Shown here piece by piece: positions 7,048-54,456 of a stretch of DNA of 64,000 nucleotides. The notes under the pieces are model-generated. The model was not told the origin of the DNA, did no database searches, and saw nothing but the letters and a program-made list of their open reading frames with translations. Origin of the DNA: a bacterium (GTDB lineage: Bacteria; UBA8248). The stretch is taken from assembly GCA_965261085.1 (NCBI GenBank), contig OZ253442.1, positions 2,880,001-2,944,000 on the forward strand, read 5' to 3'. The position numbers and the translations under genes are program-made. Position 1 is the first letter of the stretch; the number at the start of each line of letters is the position of its first letter.

Positions 7048-7051
7048 AAAT

Positions 7052-7690: not shown

Positions 7691-7905
7691 CTCGTGGGGG
7701 ATTCTGGCGCATAAGGAAGATGGAGCGATAACGGGAATTGCGCGGAAATGCGTGATTCACGCTCGGTTGCCTCGCCGTCATTCCGGTGTCATTTCCGACT
7801 GAGGAGGGAGGAAATGCGGAATCTAGAACTAAAGTCGCTGGATCCCGGATTAGAGCACTCCGGGATGACAAGCAAACAGGTTCTTATTACTCCCCCCTTG
7901 AGGGT

Positions 7906-8004
7906 CAATTCCGACTGAAGAATGAATGATTGTTCCGACTGAAAAAGAAGAAATTCTCGCAATTGAAGAATGAGCAATTGTTTCGACTTATGAAGGAGGA
8001 ATTG
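7906..8004 (+). repeat. 24-bp tandem array of four 13-nt hairpin-loop motifs
   Basis: GACTGAAGAATGA-like units at 7913, 7937, 7961, 7985; outer CAATTCC/GGAATTG inverted pair. Confidence 0.75.
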
Positions 8005-8113
8005 CGTGCCGGTGTTTTTCCCATCCTCTGAAAACCCTCCCTTATCGGGGCTGTTGAAAAAGTCCCCCAAAAACAGGGGATGAATTTCTCAATCGACATA
8101 TGCTTATGAAATG

Positions 8114-8263
8114 ACTCCCCCCTTGAGGGGGAGTCGGCAAGGAGAGGACGGAGTCCGAAGCCGCGCCGGTGGGGGGAGCTTTTGTTTTGTGGAACCATAC
8201 CCCCCACGCATCAGCCTTCGCACAAACCGCTCGGCTTCTGCTACTCCCCCTCAAGGGGGGAGT
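8114..8263. repeat. Palindromic REP/MITE-like element family A
   Basis: Terminal inverted repeats ACTCCCCCCTTGAGGGGGAGT / ACTCCCCCTCAAGGGGGGAGT; other copies at 9800, 13250, 18769. Confidence 0.85.
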
Positions 8264-8309
8264 AATTCCCTGAGGTGAAACCCGCCCGTATCCCGCTACA
8301 ACAGAACCC

Positions 8310-9473
8310 CTACCGGACAGGCCTGATCCTGTAGACCGCGCCTCTCTCCTCGGACAGAAACCAGAGCGCGCCGTCGGGCGCTTCGCGAACGTCGCGGACG
8401 CGGCCTGTCTCGGGGAAGGCCAAACGCTCCACTTCCCTGAAACCGCCTTTGGGGTCCAAGCGCGAGATATGGTCGAATTTGAGCGACCCGACGAAGAAAT
8501 GCCCGCACCAGGACGGCCAAAGCCGCCCCGAATAGATGGCCATTCCCGAGGGCGCGATAGAGGGGTCCCAATAGAAATCCGGCTGTTCCATGCCCTTTTT
8601 CGCGACGCCCACGCCAATTTTGGCCCCCGAATAGTGGCGGCCATAAGAGATGACCGGCCATCCGTAGTTCCGGCCCTTCCTGACCCGGTTTATCTCGTCT
8701 CCGCCCCGCGCGCCATGCTCGACGGCCCAGAGCGCACCCGCCGCGTCGAGCGCGGCGCCTTGGGGGTTCCTGTGGCCCCAGGACCAGATTTCAGGCCGCG
8801 CCCCCGCCCGCCCAACGAAGGGATTATCCGGGGGGACGCTCCCGTCGCGCCGTATACGGATAATCTTGCCGTTGTGGAGGGAGAGGTCCTGCGCCGTATC
8901 GGGGTCTCCCCTCTCGCCGAGCGTCAGAAAGAGTGTCCCATCCGGCGCCTCCACGACCCGCGAGCCGAAATGCCGGCCGCCTCGGGAGGGAGACGCCATC
9001 TCGAAAATAACGCGCAGGTTCTCTAATTTAAGGTTGTCGGATGAAAGGGCGGCAACGGCGAGCGCAGTACCTCCGCCGCGAAGGTAGCGTTTCGAAAAAG
9101 TGAGGAAAATCTCGCGGGTTAATGGAAAATCCCGCGCGGCGGTGACGTCCATAAGCCCGCCCTGCCCCCACGCATAGACTTTCGGGACGCCCGAGACTTT
9201 AATCCTTCGTCCCTTGATATCGAAGTGGTACAGCGCCCCGTCGCGCTCTGTGACCAGAAACGCTCCACCCGGAAGGAACGCCAGCCCCCAGGGCGTATCG
9301 AGACCCCTCGCCACCGCCTCGACCGAAACCGGGCCGCTCATTGTCCGCCGCGTCGCCGCCCAACCCGGCGTGGCGGAAAGCGTCAGGAGCAGTAAAACGA
9401 GGAGACACGGCAGGACGCCGCGACGGTTACTCGCCCTCGGATCAGGCGCTTTGTTTTTCCATGAAATTTTCAT
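8310..9473 (-). CDS. PQQ-dependent sugar dehydrogenase (GSDH/YliI family)
   Basis: GLDTPWGLAFLP, GQGGLMDV, HFGSR, IWSWGHRNPQG, EHGARGGDEIN, NYGWP, GRVRDV; start codon uncertain. Confidence 0.92.
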   Translation of the reverse strand: MKISWKNKAPDPRASNRRGVLPCLLVLLLLTLSATPGWAATRRTMSGPVSVEAVARGLDTPWGLAFLPGGAFLVTERDGALYHFDIKGRRIKVSGVPKVYAWGQGGLMDVTAARDFPLTREIFLTFSKRYLRGGGTALAVAALSSDNLKLENLRVIFEMASPSRGGRHFGSRVVEAPDGTLFLTLGERGDPDTAQDLSLHNGKIIRIRRDGSVPPDNPFVGRAGARPEIWSWGHRNPQGAALDAAGALWAVEHGARGGDEINRVRKGRNYGWPVISYGRHYSGAKIGVGVAKKGMEQPDFYWDPSIAPSGMAIYSGRLWPSWCGHFFVGSLKFDHISRLDPKGGFREVERLAFPETGRVRDVREAPDGALWFLSEERGAVYRIRPVR

Positions 9474-9588
9474 GATCTCCCTCCCGGCGGCCTTGGGCCG
9501 ATTCTATCGTGAGAGAAAGGCCGGGTGCTAGTGATCTTCCGAGCAAGGAGCGAGGAATTGCCGACCGATGAGTGGGGGGTGCGCTTTC

Positions 9589-9763
9589 GTAGGGACAGGC
9601 CCCTGTGCCTGTCCTGACTTGTCGACCAACAAAAAGGACAACCACGGAGGCAGACATATATCTCTGACCCTACGGAATTCCTGCAACCGTAATGGAACCG
9701 TAGGGACAGGTCGCGACCTGTCCTTACGCCTTTGCTCGTCATTCCGGCGCATGCCGGAATCCA
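9589..9763. repeat. Cluster of GTAG-type REP hairpins plus a GTCATTCCGG palindrome
   Basis: GTAGGGACAGGCCCCTGTGCCTGTCC, GTAGGGACAGGTCGCGACCTGTCCTTAC, GTCATTCCGGCGCATGCCGGAATCCAG. Confidence 0.8.
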
Positions 9764-9799
9764 GGCGGACGGGAATTGAAGTAATGTCGTCTGGAAAAT

Positions 9800-9978
9800 A
9801 CTCCCCCCTTGAGGGGGAGTCGGCAAGATGAGGACAAAGTCCGAAGTCGCGCCGGTGGGGGGTCAGCCCCGACTGAGGAAGGAGGGGCTGTTGAGCAAAG
9901 AATAAGGAATCGACCCCCCACCGATTCATCCTTCGCACAAAACGCTCGGCTTCAACGACTCCCCCTCAAGGGGGGAGT
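9800..9978. repeat. Palindromic element family A copy
   Basis: Same terminal inverted repeats as 8114-8263; carries an internal covarying hairpin at 9864-9890. Confidence 0.85.
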
Positions 9979-10160
9979 AATTTCCTAACCAAAAAAGGAT
10001 GGTTCCATCGATTGGGCGGACCTGTGTGTCCGCCCAATCGACTTACGAACCCACTATGATTTGACGAAATCTCTCGTCGCCGATATACCATCGCATGTGT
10101 TCGTCGCCCGCCCTGAAGGATACCCGTTTCCATTTTGACACCGATTGAAGGAGCGAACCA

Positions 10161-11465
10161 TTGCTTGGTGTACTCTCCAAACCCAAGGACGAGATCGACA
10201 TCGCCGACATCCAGCATCTCATCGACTCTGAAGTTCCCGAGGTTGAGCAGATAGAATTCAAGAGTTCCCTGCCAGCAAAGGGAGATGGTTCTCCCGATCC
10301 TTGGATATCCGGCCAAGGGTCGATTGGAGACCGAGCGAAAAACGAAATACTGAAAGAAGCCGTCGCCTTCGCAAACGCACATGGCGGCGCTTTGCTGTTG
10401 GGTATCAAGGAGTCAGAGAGCAAGCCACCCATCGCCACAGAAATCTCGCCCATCCCGCGATGCGCGGAGTTGGCTGAACGCCTGAAGCTGATATTCCGAG
10501 ATCGCGTAGAGCCGCCGCTTCCCGTGCTTGATGTTTTCGCCGTTCCGGCAGAAGGCGAAGCGGGCGTCGTCGTCATCCGTGTCGGGCGCTCGCGGAACGC
10601 CCCCCACCGCGTTACAAAAACGCTCGTTTGCCCGGTTCGGCGAGCCGATAGATGCGAGGAGATGAGCATGCGGGAAATTCAGGATATGACATTGAACGTA
10701 TCGCGGGGTCTTGAGCGGTTGGATAAACGGCTTGCCGAACGTTCCGAACACTTCAGCGATGAATTTAAGCACCTTGAAACTCCTGAGGATGCCTTCGGCT
10801 TCCGTATGACTGCTGCTCCAGTGGGAGATGAAATTCGATTTGATCGTGTTTTTAGTCAGGGAAGAATCACGAAGGAATATGATACCCCGTGGTATACGGT
10901 TGAGCAGGAAAGCAACGGCAACAAACGAGTGTTTGATTATCCGATTGATTGGCCCCCTCAATCTTGGAGACCAATTCTGCGCGGTGCACGAGCGGAACTC
11001 GGCACTGCTTTTCCGGGAGAACTTTACAACTGTTACAGGGAGCTACATGGCGATGGGCTTGTCGAGATTGGGTTCTTCTCAGGCAGTTCGATTATCCGTG
11101 AATCGCCTTTGCCGCCGGACTGGTTTATCGTAATGTTTACGAACCTCTCTGTTTGGGCTGATCACATTCGAAAGCAAACTGATTCCCCAACAACGGAATA
11201 TGCGCTTGAGGTAGAGACACGTACTTTTGGGAACCCAGTGCTCATAGGAAATAACACTGTTTTTTTTAATGCGATGCGTTCAGGAGTAAGCGGCTTAGAG
11301 GGCCATTTCCCGAAACTATTAGATTTGAATTTCCCCAGATATTCCCTAGGCAGTAGCGATGAGATACCCAAACTCCTCGCTTTGTTTCATCGCGATTTCT
11401 GGAATGCTCTAGGTATAGATGCCGGGCAAGAAGAAAATAATTTAATAATAACGGAGGTGGCTTAA
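10161..11465 (+). CDS. AlbA_2 / Schlafen-like N-terminal domain protein
   Basis: E-x3-IEFKS, AVAFANAHGGALLLGIKE, APH, RR...MSMREI; C-terminal half unrecognised. Confidence 0.82.
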   Translation: MLGVLSKPKDEIDIADIQHLIDSEVPEVEQIEFKSSLPAKGDGSPDPWISGQGSIGDRAKNEILKEAVAFANAHGGALLLGIKESESKPPIATEISPIPRCAELAERLKLIFRDRVEPPLPVLDVFAVPAEGEAGVVVIRVGRSRNAPHRVTKTLVCPVRRADRCEEMSMREIQDMTLNVSRGLERLDKRLAERSEHFSDEFKHLETPEDAFGFRMTAAPVGDEIRFDRVFSQGRITKEYDTPWYTVEQESNGNKRVFDYPIDWPPQSWRPILRGARAELGTAFPGELYNCYRELHGDGLVEIGFFSGSSIIRESPLPPDWFIVMFTNLSVWADHIRKQTDSPTTEYALEVETRTFGNPVLIGNNTVFFNAMRSGVSGLEGHFPKLLDLNFPRYSLGSSDEIPKLLALFHRDFWNALGIDAGQEENNLIITEVA

Positions 11466-11484
11466 TCAGGCGGTTCGCGAATTG

Positions 11485-11664
11485 TGGGGCAACCCCGAGG
11501 AGGGGTTCGCCCCTACCCCACTCTATAACGCTACTCAACAAACAGGGCAGACACACAGGTCTGCCCCTACAAAGCAATTGCCCTTTTCTTCATCCAATAA
11601 CGCGACGCGGGGTAATCCGAACCGCAAGGTGGCTTCAAGGGACGCATATATGCGTCCCCTACAC
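11485..11664. repeat. Cluster of reverse-orientation GTAG-type REP hairpins
   Basis: GGGCAGACACACAGGTCTGCCCCTAC, GGGACGCATATATGCGTCCCCTAC, GGGGCAACCCC...GGGGTTCGCCCCTAC. Confidence 0.75.
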
Positions 11665-11722
11665 CTCCATATCAAACGGCTACGCGAAACCCCCTCCCCC
11701 ACAATCCCCGCCAGCATGAAAC

Positions 11723-12073
11723 CTACGCCGTGGCTTCCTCGCGCAGGGGTTTCGTAAACGCGATGGCGGCCACGTCGAAGTACTCGAGGCTCGCGTTGTT
11801 CGCCCGGCGGAAGCTGCGCTGTTTCTCGGAGTTGAACCAGGCGTCGGCGGTGGCCTTGTCCTCGAAGTGATAGACGGACGCCATGCGGCCCGCCTCCTCG
11901 TTCATGCCCCACGTCTTGTCGATGAGGCCGGGCACTTCGTTCTCGAAAAAGGCTGCGGATTTCTCCTTGTCCTCACGAACCTCGGCGAGCGTGGGCGCAA
12001 CGGCGGGATAGTGTAGAATGACCATCATCATCATAAAGTCCTCCTGGGTGTCTGGATTGGCTTTGGTTGTCAT
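11723..12073 (-). CDS. YdhR-like putative monooxygenase (dimeric alpha/beta barrel)
   Basis: VPGLIDKTW, SVYHFEDKATADAWFNSE; start uncertain (run of Met codons near 12034). Confidence 0.6.
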   Translation of the reverse strand: MTTKANPDTQEDFMMMMVILHYPAVAPTLAEVREDKEKSAAFFENEVPGLIDKTWGMNEEAGRMASVYHFEDKATADAWFNSEKQRSFRRANNASLEYFDVAAIAFTKPLREEATA

Positions 12074-12200
12074 CGTCCTTTTGATGTTCTGCGGGCAATG
12101 ATAGCCCAGGGGAGCGAATCCGCCAAACGCTGTAAGGGCGCGCAGTAGCCGGAAATTTAAGCAAGCAAGAAAACTTCAAGCGAAAAAGGAGTGCGAACAG

Positions 12201-13148
12201 ATGAGTGAGGCGGCGTATCAGGAGATATACGAACGGGCGCAAGCGAACCTGGAAAAATCAGGCGCGGAAAACCCCTACGACATCCTGGGGCCCGACCTGC
12301 CCGGCACCGAGACGGCGCTGGCGGGGTATGAGCGATTCGGCTTGAGAATGCGCCTGATGCTGACGGATAAGGCGGATACCGGGTTCGACTTCATGGGCAA
12401 GAAGCTCAGATGCCCCGTCATGACGGGTTCGATGAGCGCGAACACCCTGGCGGCCCACTGGGCGGATGGTTTCTTGCAAGTCGCCGAGGGCGCGGCGCGT
12501 TTCGGAACGCAATACTGGATAGGCGACTGTGAGGATGATACCTGGCGCGAGGCCGCAGCCTCCTACCCATCCGCCATCCGGGTCGTGAAGCCCTGGCGGG
12601 ACAAGCAGCGCACCTTGGCCTCGCTCAAACTCGCGGAAGACACAGGCGCGTTCGCCGTAGGCATGGATTTCGAATCGGGCTTTTACAACCCCGAATGCGA
12701 ACCGCAAAGAGCGGATGCGCTCGAGGGCTACGTGAAGGCCACGGGTCTTCCCTTCGTATTCAAGGCGGTGGGCTCGGTCGAGACCGCGCGCATCGCCCGC
12801 GACGCCGGGGCTGCGGCAATCATCGTCACCACGCACGGCGGAGCTCACGGGCCTTCGTGGGGCCACCCCGTGGAAATTCTCCCTGAGATCGTGGACGCGG
12901 TGGGGGACGACGTGCTCGTGCTGGCGGAAAGCGGCGTCCGTAGAGGAGACGACGTTTTGAAACTCCTGGCCCGTGGGGCCAAGGGGGTGACTTCGGGCCG
13001 GGGCCTCGTGCTCGGGCTGTTCGCAGGCGGACCGGCAGGCGTGGTCGAGATGCTGGAACTTTTGGAAGAAGAACTCAAAAAATCCATGGTCATGGCGGGT
13101 TGCAAGGATTTGGCCTCGATTTCCGGGGATATCCTGATCCCGAGGTAG
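12201..13148 (+). CDS. FMN-dependent alpha-hydroxy acid oxidase/dehydrogenase family protein
   Basis: LPFVFK, AGAAAIIVTTHGG, ESGVRRGDDVLKLLARGA, GR, EEELKKSMVMAGC. Confidence 0.82.
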   Translation: MSEAAYQEIYERAQANLEKSGAENPYDILGPDLPGTETALAGYERFGLRMRLMLTDKADTGFDFMGKKLRCPVMTGSMSANTLAAHWADGFLQVAEGAARFGTQYWIGDCEDDTWREAAASYPSAIRVVKPWRDKQRTLASLKLAEDTGAFAVGMDFESGFYNPECEPQRADALEGYVKATGLPFVFKAVGSVETARIARDAGAAAIIVTTHGGAHGPSWGHPVEILPEIVDAVGDDVLVLAESGVRRGDDVLKLLARGAKGVTSGRGLVLGLFAGGPAGVVEMLELLEEELKKSMVMAGCKDLASISGDILIPR

Positions 13149-13249
13149 GTCGAACCCGACAGAGGAGGGAGGGTTCGCCGACTGAAGAAGGAGCGATTGC
13201 GGTTTCCCGACCGAAGAGGTTTGCACTTCTCCTTATGACCTTCAATATC

Positions 13250-13427
13250 ACTCCCCCCTTGAGGGGGAGTCGGTGAGGTAAGGGCGCAAGCCCTCAAGCG
13301 AACCGGTGGGGGGTCAACCTTGACTGAGGAAGGCGAGGCTGCCAAGCGAGGAACGAGGAATTCACCCCCCACCAGCGCGACTTCGGGCTTCGCCCTCGTC
13401 TTGCTGACTCCCCCTCAAGGGGGGAGT
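13250..13427. repeat. Palindromic element family A copy
   Basis: Same terminal inverted repeats; internal hairpin at 13315-13341. Confidence 0.85.
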
Positions 13428-13505
13428 AATGGCTCGATGACAGCAATCTTCGGTTCGAAATTGTAGGGGCGGGCCCCTGTGCCCGCCCTCGTATGTTGGT
13501 TGCCA

Positions 13506-14597
13506 TCACACCGCATCGGGCAAAAGCGGCAAAAGGTATTTCCCGAAATTGCGGGCTTCCTCATCATGCGGCCAGCCGGAGAGGATGAACGTGGTCGCGC
13601 CCACCTCGATGTACTCGCGCATGGCGTCGGCCACCACCTCGGGGCTTCCCACGAGCATGGTGCCCGCCCCCTGGCGCACGAGGTTGATGCCGGAGAAAAG
13701 CGCAGGGCCGTGCCAGAGTTTTCCCTCCGCCGTCATGGCGTTCATGCGCTGCTGGGAGACGGATTCCACCTGTCCTGCGATCTCTCCAGTGACGGATGAA
13801 CTCTCCCCGTAAGAGGCCGTGCCCGCGATGATGGCCTCGGCCTCTTCCCTGGCCTGCGCGTCGTCCTCGCGCACCAGAATATGGAAGCGCACGCCGAGCT
13901 TGAGATCGCGGCCATGCTCCTCGCGCGCCATTTTCTTCACCTCCTCAAATTCCTCGGCTATCTGCCAGGGGGGTTCCCCCCATTTGAGGAAAACGTCGGC
14001 GTGTTTGGCGATGACTTTTTTCGCCGCGGGCGAGCTTCCCCCGAAATAAAGGGGAGGCCCTCCCCTGCGCGCGGGGCCGGGGAAGACGAAGCCGTCCTCC
14101 ACCTGGTAGTGCGCGCCCTCGTAGTTGACCCTGGCATCCTCATCCGCCCAGAACGCGCGCACGATGTCCAGAAACTCGTCTGCCCGCTCATAGCGCCCGT
14201 CATGATCCGCCCAGTCCCCGTAGCGGCGCGCATCCACGGATGATCCGCCGGGCACGACGTTCACCGTGAGCCTCCCGCCCGAGATGAGATCGAGCGTATT
14301 CGCCTGCTGCACGGCGAAGGTCGGCGTGGTGAGGCCGGGCCTTATGGCGACGCAGAATTTTATACTCCTGGTTTCACGCGCAATCGCCGAGGCGAGGAGC
14401 CAGCCGTCAGAACACGAGGTGTTGCACGGAATGAGCATGTTCGTAAGGCCGCTCACCTCCGCCGTTTTAGCCACGTGGACGAGATAGTCGATTTCGGGGG
14501 GAATCTCGACCTCGCCGGTGCCGAGCCTGGTGGCGTCGCCCCTTTTGTTCGAGGGCAGATACCAGGCGTATTCGATGGGTTGTTTCTTGGTGGTCAT
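13506..14597 (-). CDS. LLM-class monooxygenase, SsuD-like
   Basis: VAIRPG, TLDLISGGRLTVNVVPG, RYERADEFL, PPLYFGGSS, WGEP, LVGSPEVVA, FILSGWPH. Confidence 0.9.
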   Translation of the reverse strand: MTTKKQPIEYAWYLPSNKRGDATRLGTGEVEIPPEIDYLVHVAKTAEVSGLTNMLIPCNTSCSDGWLLASAIARETRSIKFCVAIRPGLTTPTFAVQQANTLDLISGGRLTVNVVPGGSSVDARRYGDWADHDGRYERADEFLDIVRAFWADEDARVNYEGAHYQVEDGFVFPGPARRGGPPLYFGGSSPAAKKVIAKHADVFLKWGEPPWQIAEEFEEVKKMAREEHGRDLKLGVRFHILVREDDAQAREEAEAIIAGTASYGESSSVTGEIAGQVESVSQQRMNAMTAEGKLWHGPALFSGINLVRQGAGTMLVGSPEVVADAMREYIEVGATTFILSGWPHDEEARNFGKYLLPLLPDAV

Positions 14598-14772
14598 TGC
14601 GTGTGCGTCCTTTAATGCTGTGTTTCATTAAATAAAAATTCGCGTCGTGCCGCCCGGCCCGTAAGTTTGCGAATAAAAACACCCCGCCCGCAAGGGGGCG
14701 AGACATTTAATATGAGCGCCTGCAGATAGCGCGTGGCGGCGGATGCGACGCGCCTCAGGACGCGGTGAGGAC

Positions 14773-16698
14773 TCAGCCGATCATGCCGCCGTCGTCGCGC
14801 GTGATGGCGACCACGGACGAGCGGGGCGTGGTGTCGCCGCCGTCGGGGAAATGGCTGTCTCCCTTTTTCTCGCCGGGGTGCTGGATGCCCACGAACATGG
14901 TCTTCCCGTCCGCGCTCCACTCGATGCCCGTGACCTCGCATTGTCTGGGACCCACCATGAAGCGGCGGATCTCGCCCGTCACCGGGTCGCCCACGAGCAT
15001 CTGGTTGTTGCCCTGCCCGGCGAAGCCCTTGGTGTTCGTGTATTTCCCGTCGGTCTGAATCCACAACATGCCGTTTTTGTCGAACGCGAGGCCGTCGGGC
15101 GAGTTGAACATGTTATAGGGCGTGACGTTTTTGGAACCCGCGTTCGCGCCCTTGTGGACGGCGGGGTTGCCCGCGACCACGTAGAGGTCCCACGAGAAGG
15201 CCGTCGAGAGATGATCGCCTCCGTCCGGCGCCCAGCGCACGATCTGCCCGTAGCGGTTGTTCGCCCGGGGGTTCGGCCCGCCGACGGGAGTGGCGTCGCC
15301 GCCCTTGTTGGGCTTCTTGCCCCGGTTCTTGTTGTTGGTGAGACAGCAGAAGACTTCCGCTTTCTTGGGGTTCGCAGCCACCCACTCGGCGCGGTCCATG
15401 GTGGTGGCTGCAACAGCGGAGGCCGCGATGCGCGTGTCGATGCATATCTCCGCCTGAGAGGCCATTCCCGTGGTTTTGGGCGTAAGCTCCACCCACTCGC
15501 CCCGGCCGTTTTCGTCGAACTTCGCCGCGAAGAGTTTTCCGGTTTCTAAGAGATTCGAGTTGTCCCCGCTCTCGGCGTAGCGCCCATCGCTCACGAACTT
15601 GTAGATGAACTCGCCGCGCTCGTCATCGCCCATGTAGACGACCACCCGGCCGCCTGCGGCGAGCACGACTTCTCCGTTCTCGTGCTTGAAGCGCCCGAGC
15701 GCGGTGCGCTTTTTGGGCGTGGACTTGGGGTCGAGCGGGTCGATCTCGACGATGTAGCCCGCGCGGTTCGGCTCGTTGGGGTGTTTTGCGATGTCGAAAC
15801 GCTCATCCGTCGTCTCCCAGCGATATCCCCAGCCCTTGGCGCCTACGCCGTAACGCTTGAACGCGGGCCCAATCTCGATGTCGGGGTCGCTCGATGAGAA
15901 GTAGCCGTGAAAATTCTCCTCACACGTGAGATACGTGCCCCAGGGCGTCGCGCCGTTTCCGCAGTTGTTCCAGGTGCCGAGCGAGCGCACACCTTGAGGA
16001 TCCGCGGCCGTCTTCATGAGCGCATGGCCCCGGGCGGGTCCGGTGATGTCCATCGGCGTGTCGGGCGTGATCTTGCGGTTATAAGGCGAGTCTTTGACGA
16101 TCGACCATCTACCGTTCTTCCGGGCAATCTCCATGACGGACACCCCGTGGGCCGCTTTGCTCTTTCTCACGTCGTCTGCGGTCGCTGGCTTTCCCCCGCC
16201 CACCCCGCCGTGGATGATGTCCACGTTCACGTATTCGTTGTTGACGGCGAGGACGTTCTTGCCCCCGGCTTGGAAGAGCGACATGCCGTCGTTGTTGTCG
16301 CCGAAGGCGAGTTCCTGGCTCGCGCCCGTGCCGCGCGTCGCGTGGTCAAACTCGGGTCCTCGCGTCCACATGGGGTCTCCCCACCTTGCGACGACGTGCC
16401 AGTTGTAGCCCTTGGGCACGGTGATCGTATCGAGCGTATTGGCGGGCACGGCCTCGAAGCCGAAGCGGTTCGAACCGGCAAAGGCGGAGAGCGGGTCGAC
16501 CCCTCCCGCGCTCATGACGAACGCCGTCGCGGCGAAGGCCGCCCCCCGGCTCAGGAAGCCCCGCCGGGAGATCATCTTGTCCACCAGCTTTTCGAAATCA
16601 GTCGCTTGCGGCCGCGGATAGTGGATTTCGTCGAACTCATCCGGCGAGCATTCCTCATGCGCGGCGAGCTGCGCGTCGCGCGTTCGGTCTTCGTGCAT
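14773..16698 (-). CDS. phoX: PhoX-family alkaline phosphatase (Tat-exported)
   Basis: Tat motif SRRGFL, GDNNDGM, VNNEY, NNCGNGATPWGTYLTCEEN, GRFKHE, MDRAEW, FNSPDGL, IQHPG. Confidence 0.93.
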   Translation of the reverse strand: MHEDRTRDAQLAAHEECSPDEFDEIHYPRPQATDFEKLVDKMISRRGFLSRGAAFAATAFVMSAGGVDPLSAFAGSNRFGFEAVPANTLDTITVPKGYNWHVVARWGDPMWTRGPEFDHATRGTGASQELAFGDNNDGMSLFQAGGKNVLAVNNEYVNVDIIHGGVGGGKPATADDVRKSKAAHGVSVMEIARKNGRWSIVKDSPYNRKITPDTPMDITGPARGHALMKTAADPQGVRSLGTWNNCGNGATPWGTYLTCEENFHGYFSSSDPDIEIGPAFKRYGVGAKGWGYRWETTDERFDIAKHPNEPNRAGYIVEIDPLDPKSTPKKRTALGRFKHENGEVVLAAGGRVVVYMGDDERGEFIYKFVSDGRYAESGDNSNLLETGKLFAAKFDENGRGEWVELTPKTTGMASQAEICIDTRIAASAVAATTMDRAEWVAANPKKAEVFCCLTNNKNRGKKPNKGGDATPVGGPNPRANNRYGQIVRWAPDGGDHLSTAFSWDLYVVAGNPAVHKGANAGSKNVTPYNMFNSPDGLAFDKNGMLWIQTDGKYTNTKGFAGQGNNQMLVGDPVTGEIRRFMVGPRQCEVTGIEWSADGKTMFVGIQHPGEKKGDSHFPDGGDTTPRSSVVAITRDDGGMIG

Positions 16699-16773
16699 TT
16701 CCGCTTCCCCCACGTTGTGAGATTCGGGCCAATTCTCGGCGCTTGGGCGCGCCCGCATCAGTCATCTGCGCGG

Positions 16774-16828
16774 ATTATAGCGGCCTCTCATCTCACGCGC
16801 GTTACAAAATGGTGGAAAGTTCATGAAA
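16774..16828 (-). promoter_or_regulatory. Putative Pho-box promoter of phoX
   Basis: Minus strand TTTCAT / TTCCAC / TGTAAC at 11-bp spacing, then TATAAT at 16779-16774. Confidence 0.55.
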
Positions 16829-16929
16829 AACGGGCGATGGCGGTCAACCCCGAACAAGGAGGGGTTGTTGAAAAACCCGGTTTCGAGAGCGGGCGCGTTC
16901 CTCTCGTCTTGCATGGCCACCATATCGAC

Positions 16930-17070
16930 CTCACCCTGAGTAGCCGCCGAAGGTCAAGCGCGACTGAGAAAGGAGCGTTTGTATCGAAGGGCGCTCCCCT
17001 TCGATGCGCTCCCGATGCGCCCCGGCTCTCCCTCGATACGGCGCGCGAGCGCGCCTACTCGGGATGAGGG
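16930..17070. repeat. Palindromic REP-like element with embedded covarying hairpin
   Basis: CCCTGAGTAG...GTATCGAAGGG paired with CCCTCGATACG...CTACTCGGGATGAGG; hairpin at 16955-16981. Confidence 0.6.
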
Positions 17071-17124
17071 TGGAGTGACGTCGCGGGTAAAACGCGAGTG
17101 ATGAATGTCAAATCCGAGTGAGGA

Positions 17125-17316
17125 GGGGTTGTTGAAAAAGACCCCTTTTTAGAGAGTAGAGGGGACACCCCTTTCGACTGGTAAAAGCAACCCCCCTGTC
17201 CCCCCTTGTCAGGGGGGCTTTTCTTCCACCCCCTCGTCGGGGGGCATCGCCTTTACCCCCCTGACAAGGGGGGACAGGGGGGTTGCTCCCTTGACAAAGG
17301 CTTTTTCAACAGCCCC
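17125..17316. mobile_element. MITE family B with 5-bp target duplication (GAGGA)
   Basis: Terminal inverted repeats GGGGTTGTTGAAAAAG / CTTTTTCAACAGCCCC; GAGGA at 17120-17124 and 17317-17321; related copy at 54008-54289. Confidence 0.8.
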
Positions 17317-17576
17317 GAGGAGCGAGGATTTGTTTGCCGCGAGTGATGAATGTCAAACCGAGTGAGGAGCGAGGATTTGTTTGCAGACCGACGAGGAGGT
17401 ATTACGCGCATGGGCGGCGAATGCGCCGCAGGCATTTCCCTTGAGGGACTTTTTCAACTCCCCCTCAAGGTGGGAGTGAATATATGACTACTCACCTTTT
17501 GTGACGTAGGGATAGGACGAGACCTATTCGGGTCCTTCCCCTCCCCGGTCGCGATTAATCGCCGCGCCGGAACGGC

Positions 17577-18614
17577 TCAAGCCGATTCGAGCGCCGCTTC
17601 GACCTTGCGCGCCACGTCGGCCGGAACCCAGTTCTTCCAGACCTTGTTGGTCTTCAAGAAATGGATCGCGGTGGCCGCGGCGTCGCCGCCGGCTTTTTTT
17701 TCGAGATAGGAGAGCATCTTCGAGACGAGCTCGGACGAGAGGACGTACTTCTCGATGAAGGCGACGGCCTCGGGGTTTTCGGCCGCGAACTTCGCCGTGA
17801 CCGACTTCAGAAGCGCCATCGTCCGGTAGGCGGTCGCCTTCTTGGGATTCCCCATCGCCTCCACCCCGCCCTTCTTGAGCGCGTTCGCGTGTTTCATCAT
17901 CTCGTCCCAGTCGGCCTCGCTCCACGCAGGCTCCTCGAGCTGGACGAGGTCGAGTTGTCCCAGGAGCGGCGTCGGCGCCCAGTAATAGGCCAGGATCGGC
18001 TTTTTCTTGAGATACGCACCCTTGATGGCCGCCGCGAGCGCGCCGCCCGAGCCGGGCCGGAAATTGGTGAAGTGTTTTTCCAGCCCGTAGGCGCGCAGCT
18101 TCACCGTGTTGATGACCTCGCACGCCCAACCGGGTATGCAGTTCACGAACCGGCCCTTGGAGGGTTCTTCAGGGTCCTTGAAGAGGCGCTTGTACTTCGC
18201 CAGATCGTAAACCGATTTAAGGCCCGGGTTCGCCTTCTGGACGTAGCGCGGTATGAACCAGCCCTGAATGCTGTCGGGCGTGTTGACGCCCAGCATCTTG
18301 ACCTTGCCGCTCTTCATGGCGAGGTCGTACTGATCCTTCGTGCTGTCGTACCAAAGCTCCATGATCAGGTCGTTCTTCCCCTCGTAGTGGGCCGCCATGG
18401 TCGGCAGCGTGCCGCCGTAGATGAGCCGCACCCGGCAGCCGTAACCGTGCTTCAGGATGAAGGCCACCACCTGATCGTGAAAATTGGCGCTGTCCCAGTT
18501 CAGGTCGCCGATACGAACACTGCAGGCGGCGTCCGCTCTGCCGGGGCCGGAGACGAGAAGCGCCGGCCCGATGATGACGATGAAAACGACGATAATCAAA
18601 AACTTGAGCTTCAT
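17577..18614 (-). CDS. Glycine betaine/proline ABC substrate-binding protein (ProX/OpuAC-like)
   Basis: LNWDS, ILKHGYG, MELW, QGWFIPRYV, FKDPEEPSKGRFVNCIPGWAC, YYWAPT. Confidence 0.88.
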   Translation of the reverse strand: MKLKFLIIVVFIVIIGPALLVSGPGRADAACSVRIGDLNWDSANFHDQVVAFILKHGYGCRVRLIYGGTLPTMAAHYEGKNDLIMELWYDSTKDQYDLAMKSGKVKMLGVNTPDSIQGWFIPRYVQKANPGLKSVYDLAKYKRLFKDPEEPSKGRFVNCIPGWACEVINTVKLRAYGLEKHFTNFRPGSGGALAAAIKGAYLKKKPILAYYWAPTPLLGQLDLVQLEEPAWSEADWDEMMKHANALKKGGVEAMGNPKKATAYRTMALLKSVTAKFAAENPEAVAFIEKYVLSSELVSKMLSYLEKKAGGDAAATAIHFLKTNKVWKNWVPADVARKVEAALESA

Positions 18615-18768
18615 GACCGGCCTCCGATGTGTAGGCATTCCGGACGGGATGCCCTCCACTTGTGCATGCGGGTTTTTGGAAGATGAAAATATAGGACGCA
18701 GACCCTGCAAGTCAAACCTGTGGAAATTAGGCTTTGAGTGTAGGGTGTGTGATGAGAGATTGGGAATC

Positions 18769-18937
18769 ACTCCCCCCTTGAGGGTCAAACCCGATTGAGG
18801 AATGAGGGATTGTCGGTGAGGTAAGGGCGTAAGCCCGTAAGCGAACCGGTGGGGGGAGTTTTATTTGAGAATCGCCCCCCACCGCATCAGCCTCGTCCAA
18901 GGACTCGGCTTCTGCGACTCCCCCTCAAGGGGGGAGT
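18769..18937. repeat. Palindromic element family A copy
   Basis: Same terminal inverted repeats; left one interrupted by a hairpin at 18786-18812. Confidence 0.8.
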
Positions 18938-19144
18938 GATTCCGAATACCTAGTTTTTTCTACTTGCCGACGAACTCCCCATTTCGGAGAAGCCCGATCC
19001 CTAAAGGGGGGAATAATTCCCAACTTTGCGTCACGCCCCCCTCCCCCGCCCGCGCTTCCCAAAGGCGCGCGCAGCCTGTAGATTAAAAGCCGTCAATTTT
19101 AGGCCCACAACACCCTGAGAACGCCTCATCGCCCCGAGAACCGG

Positions 19145-20029
19145 ATGAACCCCCAGCTCATCGCCGCATCCTACGCCATGTCCACCGCGGTGGTTTTCGC
19201 CACCTTCAGCGTGTTCATCAGAAAGGGCAGCGAGCACGCCAACGCGCTCACGGGCGTTTTCATCGGCATGTTCAGCTCCCTGCCCGTGATGATCGCCATC
19301 ACCTGGTATTACTGGGAGCCGGAATGGTGGAATCTCCCTGCGTTTTTCTACTTCACGCTGGCGGGGCTCACGGGGCCGGCCATGTCGCGCGTGTTCCTTT
19401 ACCTGAGCATCTCCTATCTGGGCGTCGCGCGCGCCATGCCGTTCGTCTCGCTGACTCCTTTGTTCTCCACCTCGCTCGCCATCATGTTCATCGGCGAAAG
19501 TCCGGGCGTGCTCATCCTGGCGGGCACCATCTCCATCGTGCTGGGCAGCATCACGCTCAGCTACAAGAAGCCCGAGGACACCTCCTGGCAGCGAAAACAC
19601 CTCTGGCTCGCGTTTGGGAGCGCCGTCACCGCAGCCCTCTCGTTTCTCTTTAGAAAACTCGCCTTCGCCTACGTCGCGGCCCCCATCATGGGCGCCACGC
19701 TTTCTACGCTGACGGGGTTCATCTTTCTCGTCACCTTCATCCCGTTTTTCCCGAAAGATCAAAAACCAAACCAGTTCCACGTCCCCAGGGCATGGCTCAT
19801 CTACGGCTGGTGCGGGCTGCTGAACGCATTAGGGTTTTTCCTGCATTTCACCGCCATCAGCATGGGCGATCTCTCGGTCGTGGCGCCCCTCACCTCGACG
19901 GCCCCCATCTTCAGCCTCACCATGAGCTTCTTCCTGCTCAGGCGCATGGAGCGCATCACGCCCACCATCATCATCGGCACGGCCTGCATGGTGATCGGCG
20001 CCGCCCTCATCGGCTGGCGCATCCGCTGA
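19145..20029 (+). CDS. DMT/EamA family transporter
   Basis: Two 5-TM repeats: GVARAMPFVSLTPLFS; GDLSVVAPLTSTAPIFS...ERIT. Confidence 0.88.
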   Translation: MNPQLIAASYAMSTAVVFATFSVFIRKGSEHANALTGVFIGMFSSLPVMIAITWYYWEPEWWNLPAFFYFTLAGLTGPAMSRVFLYLSISYLGVARAMPFVSLTPLFSTSLAIMFIGESPGVLILAGTISIVLGSITLSYKKPEDTSWQRKHLWLAFGSAVTAALSFLFRKLAFAYVAAPIMGATLSTLTGFIFLVTFIPFFPKDQKPNQFHVPRAWLIYGWCGLLNALGFFLHFTAISMGDLSVVAPLTSTAPIFSLTMSFFLLRRMERITPTIIIGTACMVIGAALIGWRIR

Positions 20030-45946: not shown

Positions 45947-46244
45947 TTGTTCTCCCTCCCTTATCTTGCGAAGAAAATAAAAGCAGGCGGCCCTCGCAGC
46001 CGTCCGGCCAACCGAAACCCTCAGGCAAGCAACTCATCCATATATTTTTGCTGGCCCCATAGCCACACTATGGGAAAGGCGCCGGAGCATGTCAAGCGAT
46101 TGAAAATCTCCCTTTTTCTAAAGCATCCAGCCGATGCGCAGCGTTTTCGCCTCCACGCTCACCAGAATTCGAGCACAGCTTTCTCCCGCCTTATCAAGCC
46201 TTTCTTTCCAATGCCGGATGCCGCCCTGCCCTGCGCGGTAGAGG

Positions 46245-47054: not shown

Positions 47055-47365
47055 CGTGCATTCCCCCTTCTTTCTGAATTAAGCGGCTTGCGTCCTTAAT
47101 TCTTACTAGGTACGGAGAACACGGAGACTTGGGTCATGAAACATGAAACGAGAACTGGTCCGGTTGGGTCACTCACGTGAGTCTGGATATGGTTTTGATG
47201 TCCACACTATGGGAGAGCCGCCGGGCCGTGTCAAACGATGAGAAATCGCCCTTTTTTGGAAAGCGCTTCGACGATGCGCGCCTTCCCGCCTTGACGCTCG
47301 GGCGCGCTTGGGCGTAGCGTTATCCCCAACAGATTTTCAGAATCCCCACCCTTCTGGAGATTTTC

Positions 47366-48736: not shown

Positions 48737-48843
48737 AATTTACTGAATTGAGAGGCTTCGTAGCCCCAGCCCTCAAGACCGATTGCGCCATAGATGAGAA
48801 TTGCAGACCCGCGACCGAAGAAAATGATTAAGGAGAACCCCAC

Positions 48844-50094: not shown

Positions 50095-50364
50095 GGCACT
50101 GGGTTAAAGGCATGCCATTCTCCAGAAATCGGTGAAATATGGCCCCCAGCGGCAAGTTCACTAAAGGTAACCGTTCCGTACCTCAGCGGACATAAAAGCA
50201 CCTCACCAAAAGAGTTCGTTCCTCGTAGTTCTTTTCGTGGAGACCCGGCGGACGCGCCCCACGCCGACCTATCGCTTACAACACCTCCAAAAGCGGGCGA
50301 AAATCACCCCCTACTTTCGATATTTTATCATCTTCTACTTCAGCATATCCCTCATAAGTAACTA

Positions 50365-50391
50365 TTGACAAATAAATTATCAGTTTGTCAA
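50365..50391. promoter_or_regulatory. Inverted-repeat operator overlapping a TTGACA -35 box
   Basis: TTGACAAA-N11-TTTGTCAA in the AT-rich region upstream of the radical SAM gene. Confidence 0.55.
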
Positions 50392-50463
50392 AAAATATAT
50401 TTACTTTCGTTATATTTTCGTATATATTTCTTCCTCACGCCAATTCACACTGGGAGAACAATC

Positions 50464-51708: not shown

Positions 51709-51832
51709 TGAGGGGGCTAGAAATACGGGGAGGGGTTGCACGCTCCCGCTTGACGCGAAAAAGCGATGGGACTACCCTGCCCGTCTCTCGCCATCGCACC
51801 TATGCGCGCGATGCGGGCAGACGCCGCTTCAT

Positions 51833-51907
51833 GGCCCCTTCGTCTAGCGGTCAGGACACCGGCCTCTCACGCCGGTAACAGGGGTTCGAGTCCCCTAGGG
51901 GTCACCA
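51833..51907 (+). tRNA. tRNA-Glu (anticodon CTC)
   Basis: Acceptor GGCCCCT/GGGGTC+ACCA; anticodon arm CCGGC-CTCTCAC-GCCGG; T arm AGGGGTTCGAGTCCCCT. Confidence 0.96.
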
Positions 51908-51933
51908 TACGACAAAATGCTCGGAAACATTCC

Positions 51934-52578
51934 TCAACCCCAGGAATTCAGGTGGACTATCTCATCGAGCGGGCGCCTTGTGGCGGGCTTGAAATTCGTC
52001 CCGATCGTATAGGCCACCGGAATGAGCGCCACCTGCATGAAATCATCCGGCACGCCGAGGAGTTCCGCCGCCTCCGCCTCGCACCTCAGGTGCAAGGTGG
52101 TGAACACCGAGCCCAGCCCGCGCGAGCGCAGCGCCAACTGAAAACTCCACACCGCAGGTATGACCGACCCCAAAAGGCCCGCCCACATGAACCTCGGCGG
52201 GTTTTCGGGCAGAAAATTCTCGATGCAGGGAATCACATGCACGGGGGAGCGCTCGATATTCTCGGCAAGATAGAGGGCGGAATCGAAGACGCGCTCGTTT
52301 TGCGCGGACCCGCTTTCTCGCGCCTGCGCCATGCCTTTCTCCAGATAGTCTCCGGTTCCTTTGCGGTACAACCGCCCGAGTTCACGGCGTATGCCCTCAT
52401 CCGTCACCACCAGCCAGCGCCAGCCCTGCCGATTCGAGCCGGTGGGGGCCTGAAGGCCGAGTTCCAAGCATTCCATCACGACCTCTGTCGGCACTTCGCG
52501 CTCGAAATCAAGGCGCTTGCGCACGGAGCGCGTCGTGGAGAGAAGTTTATCGGTGACTTTCAGATCAAAATCCGTCAT
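51934..52578 (-). CDS. Nitroreductase family protein
   Basis: TTRSVRKRLD, QAPTGSNRQGWRW, LALRSRGLGS. Confidence 0.92.
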   Translation of the reverse strand: MTDFDLKVTDKLLSTTRSVRKRLDFEREVPTEVVMECLELGLQAPTGSNRQGWRWLVVTDEGIRRELGRLYRKGTGDYLEKGMAQARESGSAQNERVFDSALYLAENIERSPVHVIPCIENFLPENPPRFMWAGLLGSVIPAVWSFQLALRSRGLGSVFTTLHLRCEAEAAELLGVPDDFMQVALIPVAYTIGTNFKPATRRPLDEIVHLNSWG

Positions 52579-52736
52579 GCGGTGCTCCTTTCAGCTTGTT
52601 GTAATGATTTCAGGTGAGATAGGGCATGTTACCAAAACAACCGGGCTCGCGTAATGCGCCGCGCTCTCAGGTTCCCAAAGAAGGTGCAGTTCCTCTATAA
52701 TCCCCCAAAATTCCGATAACGAAAATGAGGAAAACC

Positions 52737-53419
52737 ATGACGAACCAGGCAAGTCAGACGAGCAAAATCGAGTTGCTCGACCCGGAGGACGCCACGGGAG
52801 ATACGGCGCGCTACTTCGAGGCGACGCGCGAGTTTTTAGGCCGCATCCCGAATTCCGCGCTCGCGCTTGCGAACACGCCCTACATCGCGCGGTTCTACCT
52901 TCCCTTCAACGCCACGCTCCAGCGCGAGGGCATGGGCGGGCTGCTGACGTGCAGGATAAAGGAGATCGTCGTCCTGAAGACGAGTTTCGTGAATTCCTGC
53001 GCCTACTGAATCGCGCACAACACGGCGCTTGGTCAAGCGACGGGAATCACGGACGCGCAAATCGAGGCCATCGCCTCGGATGATTACATGACCTCCCCGG
53101 TTCTGAATCCGCGTGAGCGCGCCGCCTGCCTGTGGGCGGAGCATTTTACGAGAAACACGCGCGCGAGAACCCGGGCGTGTTGGAAGAAGTGAAGCGGCAC
53201 TTCACCGACGGCGAGATCGTCGAGATGTCGCTCATGAGCGGTAAGCAGGGCATGATGAACCGCTTCATGGATTCGTTCGGCATCCCCATCGAGGATGAGG
53301 GCGAGGTGAACAAGATCAGGAAATCGGTGCGGGGCAACCCGGACAAGATGAAGGCCTACCTGCAATCGCTCATCGACAACTGGCCCGAGGATTTCCCCGA
53401 ACCCAACCCGGACGAGTAG
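52737..53419 (+). CDS. AhpD/CMD-family selenoprotein (CxxU), with a 1-nt frameshift near 53160
   Basis: KEIVVLKTSFVNSCAY-TGA-IAHNTALG...RERAACLWAE continues in frame; C-terminus (KRHFTDGEIVEM...NRFMD) lies in another frame; SECIS-like hairpin at 53026-53039. Confidence 0.8.
53010..53045 (+). other. Putative bacterial SECIS element
   Basis: CGCTT-GGTC-AAGCG stem-loop; loop starts with G, 22 nt after the in-frame UGA. Confidence 0.65.
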
Positions 53420-53438
53420 GCATGCTCCAGAGAGCAAG

Positions 53439-53608
53439 TGCGGGCAAATGCGGGGTTCTTGGATAATTTTTTAATTCGATAAATTTCGATAATTATCTAA
53501 TGTTCTACTTTAATATAACTCTACATTTACATGAATTATAATAGATTACCATGGTATTTATAGCCATAAACCTTTTCATGTATTTATCGATATTTATCGT
53601 ATTTTTCA
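53439..53608. repeat. AT-rich 170-bp dispersed element, copy 2
   Basis: Collinear with 7052-7221. Confidence 0.85.
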
Positions 53609-54007
53609 TATCAATCGCGACTGATGAAGGAGCGATTGCGGTTTGCGCGTCCCCGAAGGAGCCTGAGAGTTTCATCGCCCCGATGGATTCGCCGAGGTGC
53701 GCGTAGCGCGTGATGTTCGCCCGCTCCGTCCGCTCCGTCCGCTTCGCCGGGATGAGAACATCGCTTGAAATTCCCTGCGTCATCGCCTCTTCCCCATGAA
53801 GGCCGCACAAATTCGACCGCCCTGCCTGCTCCGCCCGCCTCGCCCCCAAGGAGAGAGCGGGCCGCTGCATGAAACCCTCATTCATCAATCGGGTTTGACT
53901 CTATCGAAACGCCACGATTCGCCGTCACGCCAAATGCGGGGAAATGCGTGATCAAACCCGACCTGTTCCGGGAGCATCGCCGTCCCGGTGTCAAACGCGA
54001 CCACTGC

Positions 54008-54289
54008 GGGGTTGTTGAAAAAGACCCCTTTTTAGAGAGTAGAGGGGACACCCCTTTCGACTGGTAAAACCAACCCCCCTGTCCCCCCTTGTCAGGGGGG
54101 TAAAGGCGATGCCCCCCGACGAGGAGGTGGAAGAAAAGCCCCCCTGACAAGGGGGGACAGGGGGGTTAGTTTCCAGCCGAGGGAGGGCGAGCGGGACGGG
54201 TAAAGTACTATTCCCTCCGACTCCCCCCCATCCTTCCTTGCCATGAACCCCCCAACCCCCCTTGTCAGGGGGGCTTTTTCAACAACCCC
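54008..54289. mobile_element. MITE family B copy
   Basis: Terminal inverted repeats GGGGTTGTTGAAAAAG / CTTTTTCAACAACCCC; first ~90 bp nearly identical to 17125 onward. Confidence 0.8.
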
Positions 54290-54456
54290 GAGGAGCGAGC
54301 GTTTGCCGATTGAGAAAGGAGGTCGAATCCGACTGAAAAAGGAGGATTCGCGAAATCCCGGCGAATGAAGAATCCCCTCGTTCGGGATGCTTCGTACTCC
54401 TCGCGGCATTCAACATCCCCTAATGCGCAATCTTTCTCGTATGGCGCGTCCCATGC

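Follow-up and report, generated by a model that had tools for sequence, protein, structure and literature searches.

The stretch of DNA analysed here (the window) covers 64,000 nucleotides, positions 2,880,001-2,944,000, of the genome of an uncultured, sponge-associated bacterium, a 96%-complete assembly consisting of one contig of 4,267,820 bases with 58.7% G+C. Between positions 7790 and 54350 it carries repeated copies of a 27-nt hairpin, some standing alone, some extended into short arrays, some seated inside larger palindromic repeats and some split by miniature inverted-repeat transposable elements (MITEs). A sequence-only reading of the window had described these hairpins as a dispersed family in which a covarying 7-bp stem encloses a conserved 13-nt loop, and had proposed a protein-binding, recombination or nicking target, with some likeness to CsrA-type RNA sites. 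Our follow-up of the family in this genome and its relatives reveals that the hairpin is the preferred integration site of an insertion sequence (IS) of the IS1182 family and of the MITEs derived from its ends, and it points to a palindromic DNA module that probably behaves as selfish or neutral intergenic DNA.

Hairpin copies in the window and in the genome

The eight main copies listed by the sequence-only reading are borne out in their coordinates, stems and loops, and they are not chance matches. Searched for by itself, the loop pattern has 12 matches in the window, whereas 100 shuffles yield 0.81 on average and never more than 4, and a strict rule applied to both strands (a 13-nt loop with nine fixed letters, GA-N-Y-R-A-N-R-A-N-N-GA, and a stem with at least 6 of 7 pairs) recovers 103 copies genome-wide and a single one in the reversed genome. 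A covariance model built from 28 diverse copies has at least 139 matches in the genome at E-values up to 1, the best 150 of 3,398 first-look candidates having been scored.

Several details of the initial description hold in part. Seven of the eight stems are paired at 7/7 or 6/7 positions when G.T is counted, but the copy at 13315 has a 6/7 stem and a loop that ends in GC instead of GA. The listed copies do lie on the plus strand, yet one window copy, at 53871-53897, is on the minus strand, and the 103 strict copies of the genome divide into 53 plus and 50 minus. The base preceding the stem is indeed a T, mostly as part of GGT (67/103, with agt, gat or tgt in 19 more and GTAG in none) and not as a plain GT. 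The two weaker copies are real yet degenerate, that at 9534 retaining a 4-bp stem and that at 17354 lacking one base of the left arm. To these we add two copies beyond the initial list, each split by a MITE, at 17125-17316 and 54008-54289.

Anatomy and covariation of the hairpin

The plan of the 27-nt hairpin runs from a T through a 7-bp stem, a tandem G·A/A·G and two further base pairs to a GANGA pentaloop. The claim of a conserved 13-nt loop stands insofar as the loop has this length in 81 of 140 candidate hairpins of this type and keeps eight of its letters across many differing stems, but it is not an open loop. Its positions 4 and 10 are paired in 99 of the 103 strict copies (TA 54, CG 37, TG 8) and its positions 3 and 11 in 74 of them (CG 59, GC 9, TG 4, GT 1, AT 1), while 20 of the remaining copies have T/T at the latter positions and belong to one subfamily. 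Positions 1-2 and 12-13 read GA and GA, for which tandem sheared pairs are possible, and the middle letter of the pentaloop G-A-N-G-A is A, G or T in roughly equal shares.

In the 28-copy alignment, both-sided changes occur at all nine pairs, and the covariation score of 0.787 compares with 0.297 in shuffles (0 of 500 reach 0.787) and with at most 0.174 when the partners are slid; these rows were chosen as paired hairpins, which renders the percentage of pairing at the seven stem pairs circular, whereas the two inner pairs were unselected. The excess over the shuffles confirms a structure-constrained motif rather than a plain sequence repeat. DNA folding returns the succession of stem, 2x2 internal loop, 2 bp and pentaloop as the minimum-energy structure for four of seven GA strands, and for each of the seven the GA strand folds more stably than the complementary strand, by 0.4-2.1 kcal/mol. 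In stems that have 5 or more Watson-Crick pairs, 32 G.T stand against 12 A.C; the associated significance (p about 0.004) is overstated because the copies share descent. The closing GA/GA, which the sequence-only reading had singled out, is conserved; its two sides are non-complementary, and together with the G.T excess this suggests that the GA-rich strand is constrained, and folds, as a single strand.

An IS1182-family element enters the apical loop

About 22 copies, close to identical, of a 1,522-bp element emerge from genome self-comparison. Its 480-aa DDE transposase matches NCBIfam IS1182 at 356 bits (cut-off 270) as well as Pfam DUF772 and DDE_Tnp_1_6, and its inverted repeats read GGGGTTGTTGAA(A/T)AACCC. 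Elements bounded by GGGGTTGTTGAAAAA ends number 68 in all, comprising 22 of about 1,522 bp and 46 shorter MITEs, mostly of about 160-400 bp with one of 75 and one of 766 bp; the 192-400-bp elements inside hairpins show what defines a MITE, namely IS-like terminal inverted repeats and a target duplication. An exact 5-bp duplication flanks 37 of the 68. Once the empty sites of these 37 are rebuilt, 25 prove to be strict hairpins of the family with the duplication at loop positions 5-9, and seven more, on a by-eye reading, fall short of the strict definition in a single loop letter, a single stem pair or the strand that was chosen. Three others fall in the five-base loop CCCCCC-TTGAG-GGGGGG, the terminal hairpin of a 147-nt repeat that is described below, and two lie elsewhere. 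The recombination target proposed from the window thereby takes a concrete form, in which a DDE element of the IS1182 family enters the five apical bases, 25 of 37 clean insertions being into strict hairpins.

Orientation is not fixed, for 10 of the 16 full-length IS copies in family hairpins run with the GA strand and 6 against it, and the hairpin at 16955 has no insertion, in contrast to four paralogues that carry the IS. Among the 68 elements the duplications do not exceed 6 bp, and a doubled pentaloop, the footprint expected of excision, was not found among the family hairpins, one of which has a 15-nt loop. Sister-species relatives of the transposase (75-80% identical) are mostly found within the 147-nt repeat, in the TTGAG/CTCAA loop of its terminal hairpin, where 5 bp are again duplicated. 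Among 80 loci from a species-level genome collection, 69 have both ends, and a 5-bp duplication is present in 48 of the 69.

There are 21 elements without a duplication, many of them flanked by two unrelated half-hairpins, an arrangement that looks like the outcome of recombination between copies. The IS copies at genome positions 773918-775439, 2299527-2301048 and 3481852-3483373, among others, are flanked by halves of different hairpins, which suggests that the chromosome has been rearranged by recombination between IS copies. Within the window, a lone IS end, GGGGTTGTTGAAAAACCCGGTTTCGAGAGCGGGCG, lies at 16842-16880 beside a half-hairpin; it matches the right end of the 1,522-bp IS and looks like the remnant of a truncated copy.

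The partner gene of HUH/RAYT type that had been envisaged for the family did not materialise, given that a search of the genome for the RAYT/Y1 transposase (PF01797) returned 0 matches and the same search was positive in 6 of 14 control genomes. Other genes of mobile type comprise two reverse transcriptases, four IS110 copies plus a fragment, and one TnpB-type match; the results contain no tie between these genes, whose surroundings were not examined in detail, and the hairpins. The IS1182-family transposase is the only protein with evidence, from its insertion sites, of recognising the hairpin.

Host repeats, arrays and replacement junctions

The statement that copies sit inside several unrelated repeat families holds true, the hosts being two slots of one palindromic repeat plus other sequences. 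The palindromic repeat is about 147 nt long, has ACTCCCCCCTTGAGGGGGAGT ends and is present in 57 paired copies in the genome; its two fixed slots contain 49 of the 103 strict hairpins, 30 of them in the terminal slot (after CCTTGAGGGT near either end) and 19 in the central slot (after GGTGGGGGGT), with hairpins mirrored on the two halves of the repeat. Hairpins with no fewer than six different stems occupy the terminal slot, and 42 copies have an upstream context that is found just once. The repeat (window 8115-8262, 9801-9977, 13251-13426 and 18770-18936) itself has the appearance of a mobile element.

Arrays consist of a complete hairpin followed by extra units of loop, right arm and 2-4 nt, at a spacing of 22-24 nt, and orphan loops within 60 nt of a complete hairpin lie downstream of it in 17 cases and upstream in 5. 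Filled and empty paralogues of three host sequences reveal that the T and the hairpin together replace 4-7 bases without any duplication, and that the replaced bases lie on the 3' side of a small host hairpin. The hairpin-free versions of these sites, with the replaced bases in brackets, read ...GCCGCCGAAGG[CGGCG]TATCGA..., ...CATTCCGG[cgcatgc]CGGAATC... and ...CCTTGAGGG[GGAG]TCGG.... Most genomic copies of the host palindrome that surrounds the 7790 hairpin have cgcatgc where the hairpin sits, and the paralogues of the larger repeat around 16955 are either hairpin-free, with CGGCG instead, or carry the 1,522-bp IS in the pentaloop. The hairpin at 13151-13177 begins 2 nt past a stop codon. A by-eye attempt to read the terminal-slot hairpin as a decayed IS junction was abandoned, as the lengths do not fit. 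The features of the window are collected in Table 1.

Table 1. Hairpins, host repeats and inserted elements in the window (window coordinates)
Position	Strand	Feature	Context
7790..7816	+	Complete hairpin CATTTCC / GACTGAGGAGGGA / GGAAATG	Inside the loop of host palindrome GTCATTCCGG...CGGAATC
7906..8004	+	Array beginning after ...CCTTGAGGGT	One degenerate hairpin (5/7 stem), then more loop + right-arm units
8115..8262		Hairpin-free palindromic host repeat of about 147 nt	Ends ACTCCCCCCTTGAGGGGGAGT / its complement; 'empty' reference for both slots
9534	+	Degenerate unit, stem only 4 bp	
9801..9977		Host repeat, hairpin in central slot	
9864..9890	+	Complete hairpin CAGCCCC / GACTGAGGAAGGA / GGGGCTG	Immediately 3' of GGTGGGGGGT
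13151..13199	+	Complete hairpin (13151-13177), then CC, then second loop + right-arm unit (13180-13199)	
13251..13426		Host repeat, hairpin 13315-13341 in central slot	Whole spacer differs in four sister species
13315..13341	+	Hairpin, 6/7 stem, loop ending GC	
16955..16981	+	Complete unoccupied hairpin	Within larger repeat
17109..17124	+	Split hairpin, left half: arm CAAATCC, loop letters 1-9	Last 5 bases GAGGA = duplication copy
17125..17316		192-bp MITE with IS ends GGGGTTGTTGAAAAAG ... CTTTTTCAACAGCCCC	In pentaloop
17317..17332	+	Split hairpin, right half: second GAGGA, GCGA, arm GGATTTG	
17353..17379	+	Degenerate copy, left arm short by one base	Belongs to local duplication of the split copy's unit
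18770..18936		Host repeat, hairpin in terminal slot	Not in orthologous spacer of three sister species
18786..18812	+	Hairpin CAAACCC / GATTGAGGAATGA / GGGATTG	After CCTTGAGGGT, replacing GGAG
53612..53638	+	Complete hairpin CAATCGC / GACTGATGAAGGA / GCGATTG	Adjoins AT-rich repeat
53871..53897	-	Hairpin CAAACCC / GATTGATGAATGA / GGGTTTC, 6/7 stem	Not in the initial list
54008..54289		282-bp MITE, same IS ends	Two flanking half-hairpins with differing 5-mers, no exact duplication
54301..54350	+	Loop + arm unit (loop 54308-54320) overlapping complete hairpin 54324-54350	

Turnover and distribution among relatives

Hairpin sites turn over between species. The 356-nt spacer between the genes at 12201-13148 and 13506-14597 contains a hairpin pair and a host repeat with its own hairpin, whereas the orthologous spacer of 13149-13505 in four sister species measures 67-423 nt and is filled with entirely different repeats, consisting in one of the four of a lone palindrome of another family. 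The host repeat with its hairpin at 18770-18936 is likewise missing from the orthologous spacer (18789-19144) in three sister species. Contigs of four runs that cover window positions 7001-19500 are short Logan contigs, mostly of a few hundred bases and broken at repeats, and the junctions seen in them are cross-matches among repeat copies.

The hairpin family is restricted to the genus. With the best 150 candidates scored in each genome, 16 of 22 same-genus genomes have 62-147 matches to the covariance model and six have 0-11; outside the genus, 17 of 18 genomes have no model match and the remaining one has two identical copies within a duplicated stretch. The hairpin-poor genomes of the genus are the small ones of 2.9-3.1 Mb, together with two others, of 3.7 and 8 Mb. 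Two of the six harbour a related hairpin with an 11-nt loop, and the repeat of about 147 nt gives 9 DNA matches in one hairpin-poor genome as against 91-111 in four rich ones.

Genomic placement

Intergenic positions account for 91 of the 103 strict copies (88%), and 35 of these 91 lie between convergent genes, in gaps that make up 20% of the intergenic length. Neither of the strand biases put forward for testing is present. Of the intergenic copies between co-directional neighbours, 20 have the GA strand in the sense direction and 22 in antisense, so that no bias towards the direction of transcription exists, and with origin and terminus placed from GC skew the GA strand is leading-strand sequence in 53 copies and lagging-strand sequence in 50, which disposes of a replichore bias. 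Distances to neighbouring starts and stops show no preference, with 2 of 35 copies at most 20 nt from a downstream same-strand start and 4 of 56 at most 10 nt from an upstream stop. A cis-acting RNA is therefore disfavoured by both the 20-to-22 split and the rarity of nearby downstream starts, and a decoy for ribosome binding was discarded since the hairpin has no favoured distance to starts.

Comparison with Rfam did not place the hairpin in any family. Matches at the gathering score of Rfam 15 in the window are limited to a cspA thermoregulator and tRNA, none on hairpins, and a search at E-values up to 1 over 7000-19500 matched no hairpin, its weak matches being to the palindrome of the MITE and to the 147-nt repeat's terminal hairpin. 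A CsrA/RsmA site presents a conserved GGA in the loop of a short hairpin on the transcribed strand. The GGA is not kept in this family, being absent from the loop of its largest subfamily, GATTGAAGAATGA, and the strand is random relative to genes; the CsrA-type assignment is supported on neither count. Kink-turns and K-loops have tandem G.A pairs beside a 3-nt bulge, and they are disfavoured as well, because the G.A/A.G pairs here stand symmetrically between the 7-bp and the 2-bp helices without a bulge. Likenesses to hammerhead, box C/D and tRNA T-arm sequences (letters CUGAUGA and GGTCGAATCC) were dropped because the letters concerned vary between subfamilies.

Other features of the window

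AT-rich stretches of about 25% G+C (genome 59%) with repeated TTTATCGA-type words occupy 7080-7230 and 53460-53610. With up to 4 mismatches allowed, a 27-nt piece of this stretch has about 15 occurrences in the genome, often with a conserved leader-like sequence on its 3' side, and one copy adjoins the hairpin at 53612; the stretch looks like a shared promoter or operator region. Downstream of the first copy, a unit of roughly 60 nt (…gattcac…gttcgccc.tatgaa…gctgcgag…) is repeated in tandem about five times at positions 7350-7700, and similar letters follow the second copy at 53640-53900.

A second, classical-looking family of repetitive extragenic palindromic (REP) sequences, with a GTAGGG head (GTAGGGACAGG…CCTGTCC and relatives), is represented in the window at 9575-9600, 9700-9730 and 13465-13490, and is abundant in the genome and in the sister species, although the RAYT search was negative. 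The multi-copy 403-aa gene at 17577-18788 (minus strand), at one point considered as an IS, is an OpuAC-type glycine-betaine binding-protein paralogue; sister species have several DNA copies of it per genome, 85-87% identical, and the closest relative compared has no such gene at this position. The cspA thermoregulator match lies at 5483-5839 with 84 bits (gathering score 78).

Interpretation and rival explanations

The data on which an interpretation has to build are direct observations of the structure of the hairpin, its copy numbers, its turnover between species, its filled and empty paralogous sites and the insertions of IS and MITEs. We consider it fairly probable, at a rough 0.6, that the family is a genus-specific, REP-like palindromic DNA module and not a gene, maintained as selfish or neutral intergenic DNA and exploited as a landing pad by the IS1182-family element. 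The hairpin would then persist and multiply mainly as a passenger in larger palindromic repeats, new hairpins would arise by replacement-type insertion into the loop or the 3' arm of other small hairpins, and local duplication would build the arrays. The only activity demonstrated for the hairpin is to receive, as their preferred target, the IS1182-family IS and its MITEs, which cut on both sides of the five-base apical loop and duplicate it. The hairpin is probably recognised as extruded or single-stranded DNA, in which the GA.AG and pentaloop letters may be kept because they are needed for the copying or the recognition of the module. Replacement junctions with 2-3 shared bases would also be produced by template switching between stalled palindromes or by gene conversion between repeats.

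A number of points weigh against this interpretation. The single-strand constraint suits RNA and single-stranded DNA equally well, and a 13-nt loop with eight kept letters is more constraint than a purely neutral repeat needs. The direction of gain or loss would be deduced from filled and empty pairs that are paralogous, not orthologous, and the gene calls behind the intergenic and orientation counts stem from rough in-house scoring of open reading frames. Hairpin-rich genomes also hold more of other repeats and IS, and the expansion could accordingly reflect a general loss of repeat control.

The same IS that uses the hairpins might have made or amplified them, the hairpins being minimal non-autonomous substrates or by-products of its transposase and not merely its targets, an explanation that we find doubtful. 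The footprint of the hairpin, whereby part of a host hairpin is lost without duplication, is the one reported for IS1272/TnSha1 in the account of PMC4923244, and of the same-genus genomes, 13 of the 16 rich in hairpins contain the IS (the three exceptions being assemblies of 190-470 contigs), as against 0 of the 6 that are poor in them; such co-distribution is, however, equally expected if the IS only needs hairpin targets, and related genomes are non-independent observations. The first seven bases of the IS end, GGGGTTG, resemble the commonest right arms, GGGATTG and GGGGCTG, so that a 9-nt-loop hairpin arises anew at every IS junction, and 8 of 10 nine-nt-loop hairpins are such junctions. 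Yet the hairpin begins with its C-rich arm, the IS with its G-rich end, and this opposite order means that the hairpin is not an internally deleted IS or MITE; the replacement of 4-7 nt without duplication had likewise led us to reject the hairpin itself as a MITE. The want of duplications above 6 bp among the 68 elements and of doubled-pentaloop footprints, the occurrence of related 11-nt-loop hairpins in IS-free genomes of the genus, and the preference of the sister-species IS relatives for a TTGAG-loop hairpin with arms unlike their own ends all argue in the same direction. A bolder variant, in which the 28-nt unit of T plus hairpin is itself mobile and is moved in trans by the IS1182-family transposase in a hairpin-deleting, no-duplication mode, strikes us as a long shot. 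Were it true, the unit would be about the smallest mobile DNA known, its landing in the loop or 3' arm of other hairpins with the loss of few bases would be explained, and the G.A/A.G with GANGA would constitute a single-strand signature read by the enzyme, palindromes breeding within palindromes.

We regard it as unlikely that the hairpin is instead a structured RNA motif, in which a protein would recognise the tandem G.A and the purine pentaloop on transcripts, for instance in stabilising mRNA 3' ends or titrating a regulator. Conservation of GA...GA on one strand, covarying pairs and the G.T excess are what such a motif would display, the enrichment between convergent genes coincides with the location of 3' untranslated regions, and enterobacterial REP elements do act on mRNA stability. 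These features have to be set against the random orientation to co-directional genes, the presence of both hairpin orientations in single host repeats, the indifference to the positions of starts and stops, the failure to find the hairpins kept at the orthologous sites examined, the lack of an Rfam match to hairpins at either threshold, the GGA-free largest subfamily and, as far as kink-turns are concerned, the missing 3-nt bulge. A DNA site that serves the host, either as a binding or structural site for a chromosomal protein or as a decoy that steers the IS into harmless DNA, appears very improbable. Bacterial interspersed mosaic elements (BIMEs) have been proposed as sites for gyrase or IHF, and the 22-24-nt spacing of the arrays would suit repeated protein binding; moreover, on a by-eye reading 35 of the 37 clean-duplication insertions of the most active IS lie in hairpins or other repeat loops, whereby genes are spared. 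Six genomes of the genus nevertheless manage with 0-11 copies, the sites change from one species to the next, there is no known binding protein, and a lineage-level benefit is weak as a selective force when compared with the elements' own spread.

The reading as a REP-like DNA module has consequences beyond this locus. It accounts for a large share of the odd 'structured' intergenic DNA of these sponge-associated genomes, and it illustrates that covariation within a repeat family does not by itself prove an RNA gene. The 37 insertions with a 5-base duplication and an exact cut position, together with more than 100 unoccupied sites of known sequence, form a natural data set on hairpin choice by the IS1182 family. 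REP-like palindromes can, furthermore, thrive without a RAYT gene, which raises the question of what copies them.

Comparison with known systems

The pneumococcal BOX elements are made of short modules that occur in variable number within a larger repeat, and our family is similar to them in having variable-number short modules inside a larger repeat; the two have no sequence relation, and the modules of our family are hairpins complete in themselves, seated in the loops of further hairpins.

REP sequences associated with RAYT genes are defined by a GTAG-type head 5' of a palindrome and by a RAYT gene that is usually flanked by REPs. Like the REPs and BIMEs of Proteobacteria, the present family is a short imperfect palindrome, here of 27 nt, in more than 100 copies that are nearly all extragenic; it has conserved letters immediately 5' of the stem, forms mosaics together with other motifs, occurs in both orientations and serves as a landing site for insertion sequences. 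It differs from them in that no RAYT/Y1 gene was found in this genome, the 5' letters are GGT where those of REPs are GTAG, the stems vary while the internal G.A/A.G and the pentaloop (the 'loop') stay fixed, and the arrays consist of one left arm with repeated loop and right-arm units instead of inverted REP pairs. A palindrome in high copy number is thus present whereas the RAYT gene and the GTAG head are absent, and with two of the three defining features lacking we do not file the family as REP in the strict sense, even though it behaves like REP, as a non-coding palindromic module of selfish DNA.

The insertion site of IS1397 is the loop of the REP. Insertion into REPs is reported for IS elements belonging to five families (Tobes and Pareja 2006, PMC1525189); IS1397 and ISKpn1 (IS3 family) and IS621 (IS110 family) are named in that source, and ISPpu9 (IS110 family) likewise inserts into REPs. 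These elements parallel ours in being restricted to a palindromic repeat family of the host, and differ in transposase family and in chemistry.

Within the IS1182 family, IS1272 is described as targeting inverted repeats (Wan et al. 2017, PMC5678879), a source that also cites a review according to which palindromes are targeted by some IS1182 members and that proposes a model whereby joining 5' of the loops duplicates the loop alone. By the account of Furi et al. (2016, PMC4923244), every insertion of TnSha1/IS1272 is in a hairpin, which is entered in either orientation and is partly deleted without any duplication. What the staphylococcal systems of these two reports and ours have in common is an IS1182-family DDE transposase, DNA hairpins as targets, insertion in either orientation and several independent insertions. 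In our genome the five-base loop is duplicated, as in pathway 'c' of the model in PMC5678879, and the hairpin is not partially deleted; and whereas assorted terminators serve as targets there, the targets here form one sequence-related repeat family.

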